Part shown: positions 2,391 to 56,065 of the stretch, piece after piece | Position numbering within the stretch: position 1 is the first letter of the stretch | Layout of the letters: each line of letters begins with the position of its first letter | Assembly (NCBI GenBank): GCA_049304095.1 | Contig: JBAQNU010000024.1 | Coordinates: 87,644 to 151,643, forward strand | Length of the DNA: 64,000 nucleotides | Direction: 5' to 3' | Origin: Candidatus Moraniibacteriota bacterium | GTDB lineage: Bacteria; Patescibacteriota; Minisyncoccia; Moranbacterales; UBA2206 | Program-made: the position numbers and the translations under genes | Notes under the pieces: generated by a model | What the model saw: only the letters and a program-made list of their open reading frames with translations | Told to the model about the DNA's origin: nothing | Database searches by the model: none

Positions 2391-2404
2391 TTTTTTATAA
2401 TAAT

Positions 2405-2583
2405 AGGAGTTACGCATTTCCCCTCACAGCCATATTGACTAAAAAAATAACTCGAACGCTCTTTTTTCTTTTCAAAACTTTCCCTCTCTCGACGGCATCC
2501 AGTGGAAAGTTTTGAAGAAAAAAGGCATTCTCAGACAGGATTTTTTTAGCCAATACGGCTGACTCGGGTAAATGCGTAAGTCG
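2405..2583 (+). mobile_element. Copy 1 of a ~180-bp MITE-like structured repeat: terminal inverted repeats ttacgcattt / aaatgcgtaa, a long flanking helix and a conserved central 13-bp hairpin (ttcaaaactttcc ... ggaaagttttgaa); flanked by 7-bp direct repeat taataat (2398-2404 and 2584-2590)
   Basis: About 90 percent nucleotide identity to copies at 4847-5030 and 30979-31157. It fills the dacA|mraY spacer. The minus-strand ORF 2410-2601 is an artefact of this repeat. Confidence 0.7.
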
Positions 2584-2593
2584 TAATAATTTT

Positions 2594-4840: not shown

Positions 4841-4846
4841 AGTTAT

Positions 4847-5030
4847 AGAAATTGCGCGTTTACCTTCACAGCTGTATTTTCTAAAAAAATAACTCGAACG
4901 CTCTTTTTTCTTTTCAAAACTTTCCCTCCCTCGACGGCATCCAATGGAAAGTTTTGAAGAAAAAAGGCATTCTCAGACAAGATTTTTTTAGAAAATCCAG
5001 CTGACTCAGGTAAGGGTGCAAGCAAGTCGT
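4847..5030 (+). mobile_element. Copy 2 of the MITE-like repeat, flanked by a perfect 7-bp direct repeat gagttat (4840-4846 and 5031-5037) that overlaps the stop codons of both convergent flanking genes
   Basis: Conserved core shared with copies 1 and 3. The flanking helix sequence differs from the other copies but keeps pairing through compensatory changes. The minus-strand ORF 4843-5025 is an artefact. Confidence 0.7.
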
Positions 5031-5033
5031 GAG

Positions 5034-6827
5034 TTATTTATTCAAAAGATAAATTTTGCCGTTCGTGGTGTTTTCTGTTTTTTGTGGCAAGCCAATTGGA
5101 GCACTAGGCATTTCTTCTGGGTCAAAGGTGGAAAGGAAAGTCCTATCCAGTGCATAATCTTTGTAGACGCTAAATTTAGCAAGAAATCCATCCTTCTCAT
5201 AGAAGGCTAAATTTTTATCGGGAACAATTAGATAGACATTGGAAAATTTTGTTGTGTCAATTTTAGCCAAATCATTGGGGTTAAAAAAATAGACTGCATT
5301 TTTGCCAAAGAGAAAACTCATGGGTGCGCCGAGCATTGACCAGCCATCGCCAGAAGCCAAGCGGTCAACAAGGATAAGATCGGTGTTGGAAAAATTTTCG
5401 CTAAGCTGGTTGGTTTGCGCAGTCAAGTCGGCGTTTTCTCGGAAAGTGAAATAGGGCCAAGAAATAATTAGGTTGGTAATGATTAGAATACTAATCAAGA
5501 TTGACGCATAGATTTTTTTGGTAAACAGTCGATCAATGACGAGAATGGAATAAAAAATCGCTCCAGGAATAATAGTGAAAGCAAAACGTCTGAGCATCCA
5601 GGGATGATCGAGTGAGATGCCGGGATGAATGAGATAGATGAAGGTGGGCAAAATTATGAGAGCAGGCACGAGAATGACGTAGTTTCTTTTGAGCAAAAAA
5701 TAGCTTAGTCCGATTGCTCCAATGATCAGAAATGGCAGGATGTTATAGAGAGAGAATATTTCAAAGAGATAACTAACAGCGGAAAAAGGCACAGAACTGC
5801 TTTCGCCAGGTGAAAATGAGCGTAGAAGACCTTTGAGAGAGGCTAGGTAGAATTGATTATTGACAAATATATTGATGAGATAGACGAAAAAAAATCCGCC
5901 CAAGAGCCAGACTGTTTTTTTCAGTAGTGTTTTTTCCAATCCAAACTTAGTCTTTTTTTGAACTATGCCAAACAGGACTAATAGCATCAAAAGAAATGCC
6001 CAGGTTTCTATTCGAGTGAAAGTGAGGATGAGAAAGGCCGAGAGCGCACCTAGAAGATAGAGAGACTTTTTGAATTTGAAAAATAGGCTGAGCTCTAAAA
6101 GACCAAACCAAATAAAGGCTAGTGCGATATTTTCGCTGAGTGTGAATTTGAAAAGCCAGGCGAAAACAAACGAACTGAAAAGACAACCAAACGCCCAAAA
6201 AGCCGGCTTGGTCGAAGAGTGAAGTTCCGTGAGTAGGAAAAAAGCTAGAAGGAAAAGAAAGAATGTGATGCTGTTGGCAATGACGAACCCAATGAGGCCA
6301 AAGAGGGAGTAGAACGTTGCTAGCCATGCAATGTAGCCAAGGGAAAAATGGGTAATCAGGCTTCCTGAGCGAGTATAATTGAAGCCGGGAAAATTGAGCG
6401 CCGTGCCTGGGCCATAGATTTTGAAAAATTCTTGCGAAGCGGTTGAGCTAAAGGCTAATTGATGATTTTGCGCCAGGCGCACGGCTGCTTCGCTAAAGGA
6501 GCCTTGGTCGCGTCCAGAAAAAACAGTTGGCACAAAAGAGAAGGCTAGGAAAATAATAAAGCCAAGCGAGAGGAATGTAGCGGAAAGGAAACTGGCTGAT
6601 TTCAAAGCTTGACGATTGTGAACGAAAAGCGAGAGGAAGAATGAGCCACCGAAAAAAAGATAGCCAGCCAAAATCGGCCAATAGAAAAAATTAGTTAGCG
6701 CGAGCACAATTGCCAAAACTTCCAGGCCAATGAAAAAGAGTCCTAGAAAAGAAAATAGCTGGTATTTGTTGAGGTTTTTTGGTAGTTTCATTATTCCAAT
6801 TATAGCGTCAAAAATTCTTTTTGCCAA
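5034..6827 (-). CDS. Multi-pass membrane protein, probable GT-C-fold glycosyltransferase (ArnT/PMT-like)
   Basis: More than 10 TM helices N-terminal with an RDQGSFSEAA loop after TM segments (resembles the DE/RDE motif of GT39/GT83 enzymes); soluble C-terminal domain; sits in the glycan locus. Confidence 0.4.
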   Translation of the reverse strand: MAKRIFDAIIGIMKLPKNLNKYQLFSFLGLFFIGLEVLAIVLALTNFFYWPILAGYLFFGGSFFLSLFVHNRQALKSASFLSATFLSLGFIIFLAFSFVPTVFSGRDQGSFSEAAVRLAQNHQLAFSSTASQEFFKIYGPGTALNFPGFNYTRSGSLITHFSLGYIAWLATFYSLFGLIGFVIANSITFFLFLLAFFLLTELHSSTKPAFWAFGCLFSSFVFAWLFKFTLSENIALAFIWFGLLELSLFFKFKKSLYLLGALSAFLILTFTRIETWAFLLMLLVLFGIVQKKTKFGLEKTLLKKTVWLLGGFFFVYLINIFVNNQFYLASLKGLLRSFSPGESSSVPFSAVSYLFEIFSLYNILPFLIIGAIGLSYFLLKRNYVILVPALIILPTFIYLIHPGISLDHPWMLRRFAFTIIPGAIFYSILVIDRLFTKKIYASILISILIITNLIISWPYFTFRENADLTAQTNQLSENFSNTDLILVDRLASGDGWSMLGAPMSFLFGKNAVYFFNPNDLAKIDTTKFSNVYLIVPDKNLAFYEKDGFLAKFSVYKDYALDRTFLSTFDPEEMPSAPIGLPQKTENTTNGKIYLLNK

Positions 6828-27967: not shown

Positions 27968-29983
27968 TTAAGTAGTAGAAATTGGATCAATGTCAATGTT
28001 CCAGCCAGCATGGAGAGTTTTGAGGATTTTTGTTGCCTCCTCTGGCAGCGCCAAGTTGAATTTAATAATCAGTTGTTTAGAAAAACGTCCGCGGACCTTT
28101 GGCACAAAAGCTTCCTGGGGTTCAGTTATTCGCAGACTATTTTCAATAGCAACTAATTGCTCAAAAACCGCTTTTGTTTCAGTGTCAACCTTTTTTTTAT
28201 TATAATCTTGAAAGGTCAATTTGGCAATTTTTCCGAGAGGGGGATAGCTGAGTGCTTCGCGATCAGCCAACTCTTTTTGATAGAAGGAGAGATAATTTTT
28301 TTCGGCTACTGCCGCGAGAAATTTGTTTTGTGGGTGATAGGTCTGCATAATCACTACCCCTGGAAAGCGTGCGCCGGGACGAGCTACTCGACCAGACAGT
28401 TGCACGAGATCAGCATAAGCTTTTTCTCCCGTGTTCCAACTAGGAAAAGTTAAAAGGTTGTCGGCGTCAATCACGGCGACCAGCGCCACACGTGGCAAAT
28501 CCCATCCCTTGGTGATCATTTGGGTGCCAATGAGGATGTCGAATTCACCGCGGGAAAATTCTTGATAGGCCTTTTGTTGAAAATCTTTAGTCTTGGCGTT
28601 TTGTGCGTCGATGCGTAAAATTTTAGCTTCTGGAAAAAGACTCGCCACTTCTTTTTCCACTTTTTGCGTGCCCAGGCCAATATTGCGAAAAACAATTTTT
28701 TTACACTTGGAGCATTCAGGAATAACTGGCGAGCGATAATTGCAAGAGACACAGCGATACTCTCCTGTATTGCCATAAACTAATGCGCGATCGCACTTGG
28801 GACAGCGCAAAACGGTCTTGCAAGCGTCACAAACAGAAAAAGCGCTCATGCCTTGGCGGTTAATAAAAAGAATGACCTGCAAGCGATTTTTGAGCGCATA
28901 ACTGATTTCTGCTTTAAGTTTTTTGGAAATACAAGAATAGTTTTTAACCCAGCGTTCTTTTTTCATGTCCACTAAAATTGTTTCCATTGGTGGTTGTTTG
29001 AGTCGGTCTAATTTTAGCGGTGGCAGTTCAAGCAGTTGAGCCGTTCCGATTTGCGTCCGATAGAAAGATTCCACTCTTGGTGTGGCAGAACCGAAAACAA
29101 TCTGGCAGTCATATATCTCTGCCAGTTTTTCCGCTACCGTTCTAGCGTCATAGCGCGGGCTCATATCCCAAGACTTGAAAGACATGTCTTGTTCTTCATC
29201 AATCACAATGAGCGAGAGTTTTTGAAAAGGTGCAAAAATGGCCATGCGTGTGCCGATAATAATTTTCGCCTCGCCAGAGGCGATGCGCGACCAGTTGGCA
29301 AAAAATTCTCCGGCAGAGAGATTACTACTGAGTAGTGCGATCTCGTTTGGATTAAAATAGGCGCCATAACGTTCTAGTGCTTGTGGCGTTAATGTTTTTT
29401 CTGGTACTAAAATCAAAAATTGATTTTCGGGATTTTGTTTTTTGAACTCGATGACGGAGTGAATATAGACTTCTGTTTTTCCTGCTCCGGCTGGACCGAA
29501 AAGCAAGTAAGTTCTATTTTTCGCAGCGTCTTTTTTTGAATTAGTTTTGGAAATCAATATTACAGCTTTTTTTTGTTCTGGTGTTAATGTAATCTTTGGC
29601 GTTATTTTCTCCCCGATAGTTATCGTGGATTTTTTTGGTTTTGTTTTTTGGGATTTTATTACAAAGCTTTTGAGCACAACGCCAAGTGACGAAAAATAAT
29701 ACCCAGAAATATATTCGGCTAATTTGAGTTGTTGTGCTGTGAGAAAATTTTCCTCCAAAACTTTCTCGATTTTTTTAAGCACCATTCCACCTGAGCGAGA
29801 AAAATCAGATTTACTTTCAATCACAACACCGGAAATAGTTTTTCGTGAAAAAGGAATAGACACCAATGTTCCGGCGGATAATTTTTTACTCGCTAGGTAA
29901 TAGAAAAACTGCTCGCGACTAAGCGGGATTTTGACGAGCGGAACAACGCTAAGGATGAATTGTTGTCCTTTTTCTTTTGCCAT
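27968..29983 (-). CDS. priA: Primosomal protein N' (PriA helicase)
   Basis: Walker A GPAGAGKTEVY, DEEQD box, two CxxC...CxxC zinc motifs. Start trimmed to MAKEKGQQ because the longer ORF N-terminus (AELVDAHDSKSCGSN...) is the translated tRNA gene. Confidence 0.8.
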   Translation of the reverse strand: MAKEKGQQFILSVVPLVKIPLSREQFFYYLASKKLSAGTLVSIPFSRKTISGVVIESKSDFSRSGGMVLKKIEKVLEENFLTAQQLKLAEYISGYYFSSLGVVLKSFVIKSQKTKPKKSTITIGEKITPKITLTPEQKKAVILISKTNSKKDAAKNRTYLLFGPAGAGKTEVYIHSVIEFKKQNPENQFLILVPEKTLTPQALERYGAYFNPNEIALLSSNLSAGEFFANWSRIASGEAKIIIGTRMAIFAPFQKLSLIVIDEEQDMSFKSWDMSPRYDARTVAEKLAEIYDCQIVFGSATPRVESFYRTQIGTAQLLELPPLKLDRLKQPPMETILVDMKKERWVKNYSCISKKLKAEISYALKNRLQVILFINRQGMSAFSVCDACKTVLRCPKCDRALVYGNTGEYRCVSCNYRSPVIPECSKCKKIVFRNIGLGTQKVEKEVASLFPEAKILRIDAQNAKTKDFQQKAYQEFSRGEFDILIGTQMITKGWDLPRVALVAVIDADNLLTFPSWNTGEKAYADLVQLSGRVARPGARFPGVVIMQTYHPQNKFLAAVAEKNYLSFYQKELADREALSYPPLGKIAKLTFQDYNKKKVDTETKAVFEQLVAIENSLRITEPQEAFVPKVRGRFSKQLIIKFNLALPEEATKILKTLHAGWNIDIDPISTT

Positions 29984-30037
29984 AGGTTTATTCCAGTATA
30001 GCAGAAAAAGGGATATTTGGGGAAGATTTTTGCTTTG

Positions 30038-30121
30038 TGCCAAAGGAGAGAATCGAACTCTCATGGGATTACTCCCGCACGATTTTGAGTCGTGTGCGTC
30101 TACCAATTCCGCCACTTCGGC
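30038..30121 (-). tRNA. tRNA-Leu (anticodon CAA) with long variable arm
   Basis: Reverse complement folds as a cloverleaf: acceptor stem GCCGAAG/CUUUGGC, D arm, anticodon loop CUCAAAA, 16-nt variable arm, T arm GAGAGTTCGATTCTCTC. CCA is not encoded. Confidence 0.8.
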
Positions 30122-30958: not shown

Positions 30959-30978
30959 AAGATTTATTTAAATAATAT

Positions 30979-31157
30979 AGGAGCTACGCATTTCACCTCG
31001 CAGCCGCATTGACTAAAAAAATAACTCGAACGCTCTTTTTTCTTTTCAAAACTTTCCCTCACTCGGCGGCATCCAATGGAAAGTTTTGAAGAAAAAAGGC
31101 ATTCTCAAACAGGATTTTTTTAGCCAATACGGCTGACTCGGATAAATGCGTAGGTCA
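30979..31157 (+). mobile_element. Copy 3 of the MITE-like repeat, inserted between the parA stop and the parB start
   Basis: Near-identical to copy 1 (same ends aggagnTACGCATTT ... AAATGCGTAgGTC). Degenerate AT-rich flanking repeats (aaataat / aaataaa). Confidence 0.7.
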
Positions 31158-31169
31158 TGAAATAAAAAA

Positions 31170-32708: not shown

Positions 32709-32960
32709 GTGCTAATGTCGTGGTATAAAGTAATTAATTATATGCGTAAAATTGATCTAAAAAATGTGGTTTGGAAAGAGGGGGAGTATTATGTTGCCCA
32801 GTGTTTGAACGTGGACGTTTCTAGCTTTGGAACAACCAAAAAAGAGGCACTGTGCGCATTAGACGAAGCACTTGAATTATATTTTGAGGATATAAAAGTT
32901 CCCAAAGTGACTAGCATTGAAAGACCGGAACTTGTCCAAATGTCAATTTGCCATGCCTAA
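32709..32960 (+). CDS. hicB: HicB-family antitoxin (UPF0150, RNase-H-like fold)
   Basis: 83-aa protein with the YVAQCLNVDVSSFGTTKKEALCALDEALELYFE pattern; overlaps hicA by 8 nt (ATGCCTAA). Confidence 0.6.
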   Translation: MLMSWYKVINYMRKIDLKNVVWKEGEYYVAQCLNVDVSSFGTTKKEALCALDEALELYFEDIKVPKVTSIERPELVQMSICHA

Positions 32961-33171
32961 ACTTTATTCATCTTCAGAAATTATCAAAGTCCTGCAAAAA
33001 CGGGGCTTTGTTTATATTTCCCAAAAAGGCAGTCACGCAAAATTTAGAAAAACTGCCAGTCCAACCTTGACAGCGATTGTTCCAGCGGGGAAAAGAGAAA
33101 TTCCTTTTGGAACTTTCAGATCAATTTTGCGTCAAGCTAATCTAAGTGAAGATGATTTTAGGAAAAAATAA
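32953..33171 (+). CDS. hicA: HicA-family mRNA interferase toxin
   Basis: GSHAKFRK...VPAGKREIPFGTFRSILRQANL matches the HicA/YcfA family. Start set to MPKLYSS, overlapping the hicB stop. Confidence 0.6.
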   Translation: MPKLYSSSEIIKVLQKRGFVYISQKGSHAKFRKTASPTLTAIVPAGKREIPFGTFRSILRQANLSEDDFRKK

Positions 33172-33179
33172 TTCCCTGT

Positions 33180-33206
33180 GTCATCCCCGAGAAGTCGGGG
33201 ATCCAG
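33180..33206 (-). repeat. Small GC-rich palindromic element, inverted-orientation variant gtcat-ccccga-gaag-tcgggg-atccag
   Basis: Same flanks (ctggat...atgac) as the elements at 33308-33335 and 55778-55805; the stem sequence differs but pairing is kept by compensatory changes. Confidence 0.6.
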
Positions 33207-33307
33207 GCACCTCAGGTAATAAAAAAAGAAAAACGAGATTTATTAGTTAAGAAATAGAAGTTAGAGGATTTATAATTCGATTGTTTGTAATCTATAGCCA
33301 GTGGAAC

Positions 33308-33335
33308 CTGGATTCCCGCCTTCGCGGGAATGACA
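33308..33335 (+). repeat. Small GC-rich palindromic element ctgga-ttcccgc-cttc-gcgggaa-tgaca
   Basis: 28-nt identical copy also at 55778-55805. Confidence 0.65.
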
Positions 33336-33343
33336 TTTCTTAG

Positions 33344-55321: not shown

Positions 55322-56065
55322 ATGAAAATTTTAGGTGTGCGGGTAGATAATCTTTCTCAAAAAGAAATCCTCGAAAAAGTTGAGTGTTTTTTGAATGAAG
55401 AAAAGTTTCATCAGATTGCCACAGTTAATCCGGAATTTATCCTGGAAGCACAAGATAGTCCAGAGTTTAAAAATATTCTCAATAGTTGCGCGCTGAATGT
55501 GGCTGATGGATTTGGTGTTCGCTGTGCTTTTTGGCGCTTTGGTAAACATCTAACAGCTAGGATGACTGGAGCGGACTTGCTACAAGAAATTCTCAAAATT
55601 GCCAATGAAAAAAACCTGAAAGTGTTTTTAGCGATAAATAAAGATGGGCTTAGTAGTTTTGAAGAGATAAAAAAAGCAATCTTGAAAATTTATCCAAAAT
55701 TGCAAATAGAGGGTGCCAGCTTGGATTGCTATTCTCATGAAGACACAAAGCCCATCGCTCATTCTTTGGCATCTACACTGGATTCCCGCCTTCGCGGGAA
55801 TGACAAGTATATACTTTTTTGCAACTTCGGCGCTCCACATCAAGAAATCTTTCTTAATTCTCAAAAAGATGCTACAATACGCCTAGCGATGGGTGTGGGA
55901 GGATCCTTTGATTTTTTGACGGGAAAAGTCAGGCGCGCCCCGGTTTTTATGCGAACAATTGGCCTGGAATGGCTTTGGAGACTTGCTCAACAGCCTAGGC
56001 GTCTGCCAAGAATTCTGCGCGCCACAATTTTGTTTCCCCTGAGGATAATTTTTAATTTCAAATAA
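55322..56065 (+). CDS. WecG/TagA/CpsF-family glycosyltransferase (GT26) carrying an in-frame 9-codon insertion (LDSRLRGND)
   Basis: MKILGVRVDNLSQKEIL N-terminus and NFGAPHQE, GLEWLWRL motifs. The insertion is encoded by the palindromic element at 55778-55805. Confidence 0.8.
   Translation: MKILGVRVDNLSQKEILEKVECFLNEEKFHQIATVNPEFILEAQDSPEFKNILNSCALNVADGFGVRCAFWRFGKHLTARMTGADLLQEILKIANEKNLKVFLAINKDGLSSFEEIKKAILKIYPKLQIEGASLDCYSHEDTKPIAHSLASTLDSRLRGNDKYILFCNFGAPHQEIFLNSQKDATIRLAMGVGGSFDFLTGKVRRAPVFMRTIGLEWLWRLAQQPRRLPRILRATILFPLRIIFNFK
55778..55805 (+). repeat. GC-rich palindromic element ctggattcccgccttcgcgggaatgaca inside the wecG/tagA-family CDS, in frame
   Basis: 28-nt identical to 33308-33335. 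It sits between the conserved IHAS and ILFvnFGAPKQE blocks, where the E. coli WecG sequence (recalled from memory) has no equivalent residues. Confidence 0.6.

Follow-up and report, generated by a model that had tools for sequence, protein, structure and literature searches.

Three of the short spacers between genes in a 64,000-nucleotide stretch of a Candidatus Moraniibacteriota genome (contig JBAQNU010000024.1 of assembly GCA_049304095.1; hereafter the window) are filled by copies of a single repeat family, an imperfect palindrome spanning its whole length of 182 bp. Gene calls for the window were taken from contig JBAQFD010000024.1 of GCA_049287085.1, a Candidatus Moraniibacteriota metagenome-assembled genome (MAG) of the Candidate Phyla Radiation (CPR). 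A repeat search of the window returned the copies as direct repeats on the same strand with 87-94% identity, placed as 180-nt units at 2403-2582, 4845-5024, and 30977-31156, and the refined element boundaries are 2404-2585, 4846-5031, and 30978-31159. Core probes of 32 and 35 nt matched only these three sites, with 0 matches expected by chance. Both searches confirm the claim of an earlier sequence-only reading of the window that it holds three same-orientation copies with a near-identical core, and a profile hidden Markov model built from 15 copies and run with nhmmer found no fourth copy in the window.

Copy 1 (2404-2585, plus strand), a full member of sub-family A, lies between the stop of a dacA-like gene (Peptidase_S11) and the start of mraY, and copy 3 (30978-31159, plus strand), also of sub-family A, occupies the ParA-ParB spacer. 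Copy 2 (4846-5031, plus strand) belongs to sub-family B, with an ATTTTCT/AGAAAA variant of the helix and a 4-nt indel near the right end, and it sits between convergent genes, flanked by the stop of a GT4 gene and the stop of the gene for a 597-aa membrane protein. The copies had initially been described as lying in the same orientation as the surrounding genes, which stands for copies 1 and 3 (dacA/mraY and parA/parB) and is true of only one neighbor of copy 2.

To look for a target-site duplication (TSD), 15 copies were aligned and every offset near either end was scanned. The best boundaries run from TAGGAG... to ...GTAAGTCATA (182 bp) and are directly abutted by a 5-bp direct repeat, which is exact at identical offsets in six of the 15 copies (AAGTT, TTATT, ATAAA, AAACT, ATTAA, and AATCT). 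Among 200 flank-swapped controls, in which the left and right flanks came from different copies, the best offset reached a mean of 1.3 and a maximum of 3. The TSD of copy 2 (AGTTA at 4841-4845, its right copy at 5032-5036, within a surrounding repeat GAGTTAT) is exact once the 4-nt indel is allowed for, and three further copies match at four of the five positions. Because the TTA of the right-hand AGTTA is the TAA stop of the convergent minus-strand gene, the gap between the two stops would have been about 2 nt before the insertion. At copy 3, TAATA on the left (30973-30977) is answered by AAATA on the right (31160-31164), a four-of-five match, and AAATA is also what the relatives L016 and L024 read at their empty sites at this insertion point. 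For copy 1, just two of five positions match at the family's fixed boundary, and the AATAA at 2399-2403 has its right copy at 2585-2589 if the element ends at 2584. The sequence-only reading had taken a 7-bp repeat, TAATAAT, for the duplication around copy 1; this repeat does flank the copy, but the family's duplication is 5 bp (here AATAA) and TAATAAT reflects shifted boundaries. A TA target duplication of the IS630/Correia type was dropped, since the 5-bp model fits better even though eight of 14 right ends read TA by eye.

Empty sites in relatives and further copies were both looked for, and both were found. For the first, the same locus in relatives was fetched via ParB homologues. The ParA-ParB spacer measures 211 nt in the window, as compared to 24 nt in L016 (ParB identity 92%). 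L017 and L019 have 11 and 12 nt there, and the spacer of L024 reads as that of L016 does, without the element. Where the window has TAATA, the element, and AAATA, L016 and L024 read ...AAATACAAAAAAATGG, also written ...TTAAATACAAAAAAATGG. A second comparison, made mutually among the loci concerned, involves the spacer between the polyprenyl synthase gene and UppS, which holds copy L007a; the corresponding spacers of L025 and L019 measure 22 and 12 nt. We also observed other occupants of the ParA-ParB spacer, namely a different palindromic element of 190 nt with TGTCATCCTGAGCG ends in L021 (9815-9985) and a 128-nt AT-rich inverted repeat in L025 (1522-1649). This spacer appears to be an insertion hot spot for small hairpins.

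The family sample comes to 18 copies in all, 15 of which (full, truncated, or decayed) lie on other groundwater or metagenome contigs, each flanked by different genes. When 185,579 species-representative genomes were scanned for an exact 22-mer, one true copy came to light, on the 20-kb groundwater contig L002 (JBAZYB010000045.1), which has a coverage of 1.7 and is binned in a 'Hyphomicrobium sp.' MAG. This contig is probably mis-binned; its genes look CPR-like and include type IV pilin-like genes and a Bro-N gene. The other genome match, L001 (Halotia), was discarded as a chance 22-mer inside a gene. A metagenome scan returned nine contigs, all from Joint Genome Institute (JGI) sample Ga0172379, and BLAST within L002-L011 gave 12 full copies and one truncated copy. 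A protein search with the translated minus-strand open reading frame (ORF) led to one 'hypothetical protein' on the 245-kb contig L012. This contig has a full copy (86% identity), a 'mini' copy immediately upstream of mraY whose internal deletion removes the entire core, and a solo right-end remnant. A second sample yielded the L012 contig sequence again (L013). Synteny links L012 to window 3.7-13 kb, with a nucleotide identity of just 67-75%, and the family therefore spans clearly different genomes. Orthology of window copies 1 and 2 with the L012 copies was rejected because the TSDs and neighboring genes differ, and independent insertions are more likely.

Four of the outside copies, at four different loci, have in common a nested 20-nt GC palindrome, CCTGCCTRCCGGCAGGCAGG (L004 732-751, L007 1628-1647, L009 1663-1682, and L011 4161-4180), which sits at the 5' edge of the 3' internal loop described below and brings the element from 182 to 202 bp. 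Its occurrence at four loci indicates that a variant master was copied. The palindrome CCTGCCTRCCGGCAGGCAGG is also found alone in another Moranbacteria genome (L019 2998-3017), where it is followed by GTGTTTTTT (GTG, then a run of six T) and resembles a terminator hairpin. The Logan assembly contig L015 ends inside the element (L015 1-41), upstream of parB.

The terminal inverted repeats (TIRs) of the element are 16 nt long and imperfect. In copy 1 the left TIR is TAGGAGTTACGCATTT (2404-2419, plus strand) and the right TIR is AAATGCGTAAGTCGTA (2570-2585, plus strand), the last 6 nt of which are hypervariable among copies; compared as a terminal pair, TAGGAGTTACGCATTT stands against AAATGCGTAAGTCATA, and the ends of the element read TAGGAGTTACGCATTT ... 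AAATGCGTAACTCCTA. The AGGAG of the left end is carried by the element itself, as it is part of the TIR, and a perfect mirror of the left TIR, CGTAACTCCTA, is found in the remnant in L012. We rejected the alternative that AGGAG is a host Shine-Dalgarno (SD) sequence split from its start codon, with the helix rejoining SD and AUG, because the empty ParA-ParB sites are without AGGAG and parB has no SD there. Copies 1 and 3 have the inverted repeat originally proposed, ttacgcattt/aaatgcgtaa; that of copy 2 has diverged and is partly compensated.

From the ends inward, again in copy 1, the outer helix joins a 5' arm at 2410-2448 (plus strand), which includes an A7 run at 2441-2447, to a 3' arm at 2540-2579, which includes a T7 run at 2541-2547. 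The near-invariant inner helix pairs 2454-2483 with 2504-2530 and contains a perfect 13-bp stem, TTCAAAACTTTCC/GGAAAGTTTTGAA, just as the sequence-only reading had noted. It closes on the 20-nt apical loop CTCNCTCGRCGGCATCCRRT (2484-2503), which has three to four hot variable positions, and the 3' internal loop starts at 2531-2539 with TCTCAGACA of TCTCARACARGA. Outer helix, A7/T7 clamp, inner helix, and apical loop together form an imperfect palindrome over the full element. The single long rod-like fold that had been proposed is far more stable than shuffled sequence, with copy 1 folding at -70.7 kcal/mol on the plus strand (z -9.5) and at -83.9 kcal/mol on the minus strand (z -12.0), and copy 2 folding at -67.9 kcal/mol on either strand. 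Plus-strand RNA of the element is predicted to form a near-perfect helix of roughly 27 bp.

Variation among the 13 sub-family A copies is distributed very unevenly over this structure. In the A7/T7 clamp and the inner helix arms, 2 of 80 columns are variable, as compared to 35 of 73 in the outer helix and ends (Fisher p = 6e-12 for outer versus inner), 8 of 20 in the apical loop, and 3 of 9 in the 3' internal loop. When L007b is left out (12 copies), the single-copy alleles number 17 in the outer part and 2 in the inner arms. The TAGGAG of the left end is well kept among copies. Collapse of repeats during assembly is unlikely to be the cause of the invariant core, as the central apical loop keeps copy-specific variation.

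Relative to genes, the copies begin 2-24 nt past a stop codon and end 0-17 nt ahead of a start codon, in host genomes whose intergenic spacers are about 2-25 nt, and it is because these spacers are so short that the insertions fall exactly between a stop and the next start or stop. Thirteen of the 15 copies with an unambiguous context are co-oriented with their neighboring genes and two are opposed (L008 and the full L012 copy), giving a two-sided binomial p of about 0.007; two further copies have divergent or convergent neighbors. In 11 of 12 loci, the strand that carries the element has a positive GC skew, with L008 as the sole exception. In L012, a block of plus-strand genes has a skew of -0.08 to -0.145 on the locus plus strand throughout, and the element occupies the minus strand. 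The orientation of the element may therefore track replication and not transcription, although most loci confound skew with gene direction. One may also speculate that the minus-strand orientation is selected against as a terminator, the asymmetry on which this would turn being weak (6 versus 10 nt from the hairpin to U7).

We consider the element to be, with high probability, an undescribed 182-bp non-autonomous DNA transposon, i.e., a miniature inverted-repeat transposable element (MITE), of a Candidatus Moraniibacteriota lineage. It is small and non-coding, has TIRs and a TSD of constant length at constant boundaries, occurs in multiple dispersed copies, and shows presence/absence polymorphism; a marked variant has spread, and products of decay are observed. 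That it is a mobile, non-autonomous DNA element is established by the TSDs and the empty sites, taken together with the palindrome-marked variant that has spread, the copies in decay, and the assembly break in L015. The MITE-like family first proposed from the sequence thus gains support from the TSD statistics, the two filled/empty comparisons, and the further copies. As for how it moves, a transposase encoded elsewhere in the genome or community would recognize the element's ends and mobilize it in trans. Insertion would be into AT-rich 5-mers, with a staggered cut repaired into the 5-bp duplication, and surviving insertions would fill the spacer between a stop and the next start, or between two convergent stops. 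Where it lies inside an operon, the element would be transcribed together with its neighbors, and the mRNA would contain it as a long hairpin.

Several observations weigh against this interpretation. The TSD is exact in no more than 7-8 of the 15 copies, and no autonomous partner sharing these ends turned up, the scans of genomes and metagenomes having used the core pattern. In typical MITEs the TIRs are the conserved, transposase-binding part. Here, variability is greatest at the ends, where the right-terminal 6 nt are hypervariable, and lowest in the interior, and the conservation profile is thus the opposite of that of a typical MITE. The strong orientation bias is likewise unexpected for a simple cut-and-paste DDE element. 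In favor of a non-autonomous element, on the other hand, no transposase Pfam domain was present among the called genes of almost the entire window (contig positions 84184-148227), in agreement with the absence of a transposase first noted there. No partner combining the same TIRs with a transposase was seen among the window's called genes or in viral contigs.

The invariant interior can nevertheless be accommodated by a MITE. The simplest reading of the profile is that most of the sampled differences separate transposing lineages and not decaying copies, and the most economical reading is that the inner hairpin would be needed for propagation, with only those lineages that keep it leaving progeny. 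The core-less mini copy and the solo end would argue against a host-level necessity at every site. A more specific proposal is that the inner hairpin, with about 80 nt of arms, is functional, either as the recognition element of a hairpin- and strand-specific, replication-coupled transposition with 5-bp TSDs, or as an operon RNA hairpin or minus-strand RNA selected by the host. We regard this proposal as unlikely; if true, hairpin- and strand-specific, replication-coupled transposition with 5-bp TSDs would be a combination undescribed before.

The alternative that fares best keeps the MITE but has it co-opted by the host as a cis-acting hairpin in operon mRNA, serving as a processing site for RNase III or another enzyme, as a stability element, or as a cistron uncoupler. 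RNA-level selection of this kind would explain both the orientation bias and the conserved helix. The 13 of 15 co-oriented copies, their tight placement between stop and start codons, the roughly 27-bp near-perfect helix in plus-strand RNA, and the pattern of conserved helix arms with variable loops are all consistent with it, and analogous effects are known for Correia, ERIC, and REP elements. However, the corresponding spacers of close relatives are free of the element, the genes on either side are unrelated in function, some copies have decayed, and GC skew predicts orientation at least as well as gene direction does, including at L012, whose neighboring genes are on the opposite strand. 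We therefore view co-option as unlikely.

The skew brings in a second alternative, which is that the element moves in single-stranded form, in a hairpin-dependent and replication-coupled manner like that of IS200/IS605, REP-RAYT, or Tn7-TnsE, with the replication fork setting the orientation and the enzyme recognizing the hairpin. This would fit the positive skew on the element strand in 11 of 12 loci including L012, the retention of structure alongside variable terminal sequence with compensatory changes in the outer helix, and an asymmetry in mismatches (below) that is compatible with one preferred folding strand. Yet IS200/IS605 and REP elements have neither TSDs nor TIRs and the element has both, L008 is an exception to the skew rule, most loci confound skew with gene direction, and the annotated 64 kb showed neither a Y1 (HUH) transposase nor a TnsE-like gene. 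Such movement is in our judgment distinctly unlikely.

A third alternative, toward which the sequence-only reading had leaned, is that the element is or carries a structured RNA from the minus strand, antisense to the flanking operons, with mobility being secondary or the copies being paralogous RNA genes. Selection would then act on the near-perfect helix and its G.U wobbles. The evidence comes from pair counts on a 67-pair rod structure in the 15-copy alignment, where standard pairs make up 89.9% of cells on the plus strand versus 97.8% on the minus strand. This difference is due to seven family-wide mismatch positions, all of them A.C on the plus strand and hence G.U on the minus strand, which alternate solely with G-C or A-U. 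The plus-strand A.C mismatches reported earlier are therefore real and family-wide, and the asymmetry of 7 versus 0 has a probability of about p = 0.016 if both transition-type mismatches are equally likely. Both-sided changes are found at 10 pairs, as compared to 2-3 in column shuffles and 0-3 when the partners are slid, so that compensatory changes exceed both controls and complementarity has been kept while the sequence changed. A minus-strand RNA is also favored by the fold of copy 1, in which the minus strand is the more stable by 13 kcal/mol, and by the near-invariance of the inner helix next to a variable loop.

Other observations speak against it. Recent, single-copy changes are symmetric, with about nine plus-strand wobbles and about nine minus-strand wobbles, and most of the double changes trace to a small number of lineages (copy 2, L012, and L007b above all, along with L003 and copy 3/L011) and so represent few independent events. 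No promoter-like site was found on either strand of the scanned stretch with copies 1 and 2. The element has no Rfam match at the gathering threshold (in the window, tRNA-Leu alone passes), and at permissive thresholds its best matches are generic hairpins at 25 bits versus gathering scores of 55-140. Copies also decay, as the core-less mini copy and the solo end attest, and the TSDs and empty sites point to insertion at the DNA level. The A.C asymmetry describes the ancestral master sequence and is no evidence of ongoing RNA-level selection; it could equally be a preferred single-stranded DNA form. We thus accept the ancestral asymmetry as real, while the RNA reading built upon it is not established and seems to us improbable.

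That the repeat encodes a small protein, either through a 60-63 aa minus-strand ORF or as a peptide of the type I toxin kind, is effectively refuted, for although copies 1 and 2 are each spanned by a minus-strand ORF (63 and 60 aa) and one homologous 'hypothetical protein' is called in JGI data, the 20-nt insertion in four copies shifts the frame, no ORF of at least 60 aa is listed over copy 3, the helix arms are invariant at all codon positions with other changes paired across the helix, and only one matching cluster exists among 5.8 billion proteins. The called protein, P0001 (L012 10001-10213; JGI call, 70 aa), is the element's minus-strand reading frame, and small ORFs on both strands, including those for type-I-toxin-like peptides, are not conserved.

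Other identities for the element were also considered and rejected. Intrinsic terminators have a GC-rich stem, a loop of 3-8 nt, and a U run immediately after; here the loop is 20 nt and U7 lies 10 nt (plus) or 6 nt (minus) beyond the inner hairpin, and no terminator-like site was found in copies 1 or 2. Integron attC sites have R''/R' core sites (RYYYAAC...GTTRRRY) in cassette arrays adjoining an integrase. By inspection the ends of the element do not fit GTTRRRY, its neighbors are housekeeping genes (mraY, parB, and uppS), and there is no integrase among the called genes. IS200/IS605-derived PATEs and REP-RAYT elements lack TIRs and a TSD, carry sub-terminal hairpins, and insert 3' of a fixed tetra- or pentanucleotide, whereas this element has TIRs and 5-bp TSDs of variable sequence. 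A Correia, ERIC, or IS630-type MITE with a TA duplication was likewise set aside, the TSDs here being 5-mers of varied sequence. No similar sequence reached threshold in plasmid, phage, and viral-contig collections, and the novelty claimed for the family agrees with the lack of an Rfam match.

Going by general knowledge of these families, the closest analogues in behavior appear to be the Correia, ERIC, and RUP elements. Bacterial MITEs such as RUP of Streptococcus pneumoniae and Nezha of cyanobacteria are under 300 bp and non-coding, with TIRs, TSDs, and dispersed intergenic copies. The element is like them in being short and non-coding, in having TIRs and TSDs, in its insertion polymorphism, and in having no transposase of its own, but it differs in its ends varying more than its interior, its strong orientation bias, and its CPR host, and its 5-bp TSD sets it apart from IS630-derived MITEs (TA). 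Correia elements of Neisseria (CREE/NEMIS) are 100-155 bp long, have 26-bp TIRs, a TA duplication, an IHF site, and promoter elements, and are co-transcribed to give a long RNA hairpin cleavable by RNase III. They share with the element the TIRs, the position adjoining genes, and hairpin formation, but not its 5-bp TSD or its TIR sequence, and no promoter consensus was present in the copies scanned. ERIC/IRU elements of enterobacteria, at about 127 bp, are imperfect palindromes over their whole length; they occur in transcribed intergenic regions and affect mRNA in a way that depends on their orientation. The element matches them as a whole-length imperfect palindrome in intergenic regions and differs in taxon, sequence, and duplication (TA in ERIC), and the orientation of ERIC is not strongly biased.

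The 5-bp length of the TSD is shared with Tn3-derived TIMEs and with transposons of the Tn7/Mu type, and the TnsE pathway of Tn7 is orientation-biased relative to replication. Unlike Tn3, with its 38-bp TIRs and GGGG start, and Tn7, with its TGT ends and multiple TnsB sites, the element starts with TAGGAG and has a variable right terminus. REP/BIME and IS200/IS605-derived PATEs are abundant, are mobilized by Y1 (HUH) transposases, and lack TIRs and TSDs; the element resembles them in being hairpin-forming, strand-biased, and intergenic, but carries both of these features.

The tightly packed genomes of CPR bacteria (Patescibacteria), about 1 Mb in size, are commonly regarded as repeat-poor, and a full-text literature search found no description of MITEs in CPR bacteria. 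By itself, the element overturns nothing established. Together with at least two other palindromic ParA-ParB fillers, the family shows that the 10-25-nt spacers of CPR genomes are actively colonized by small mobile hairpins. Such elements break metagenome assemblies, as in L015, and yield spurious 'hypothetical proteins', as with P0001, and they could be used as strain-level markers. The combination of an invariant inner hairpin, variable ends, strand asymmetry, and orientation bias offers a lead on how the element is recognized and tolerated.

Several other features of the window lie near copy 3. A tRNA-Leu(CAA) gene is located at 30037-30121 on the minus strand, and a 715-aa PriA ORF (27968-30115) overruns it; the called PriA is 671 aa, and the true start would thus be further downstream. 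Directly downstream of the parAB-methyltransferase block is a HicB-like/HicA toxin-antitoxin pair (32709-33171) encoded by overlapping ORFs at 32709-32960 and 32917-33171, with matches to Pfam DUF7387 (weak) and HicA_toxin, respectively. Between the hicA-like gene and the stop of relA, at 33177-33336, is a second, unrelated MITE-like element, the ends of which (TGTCATCCCCGAGAAGTCGGGGATCCAGG ... CCTGGATTCCCGCCTTCGCGGGAATGACA) are each themselves a hairpin. The 28-nt right end of this second element recurs exactly, alone, at 55778-55805 inside a WecG-like ORF.

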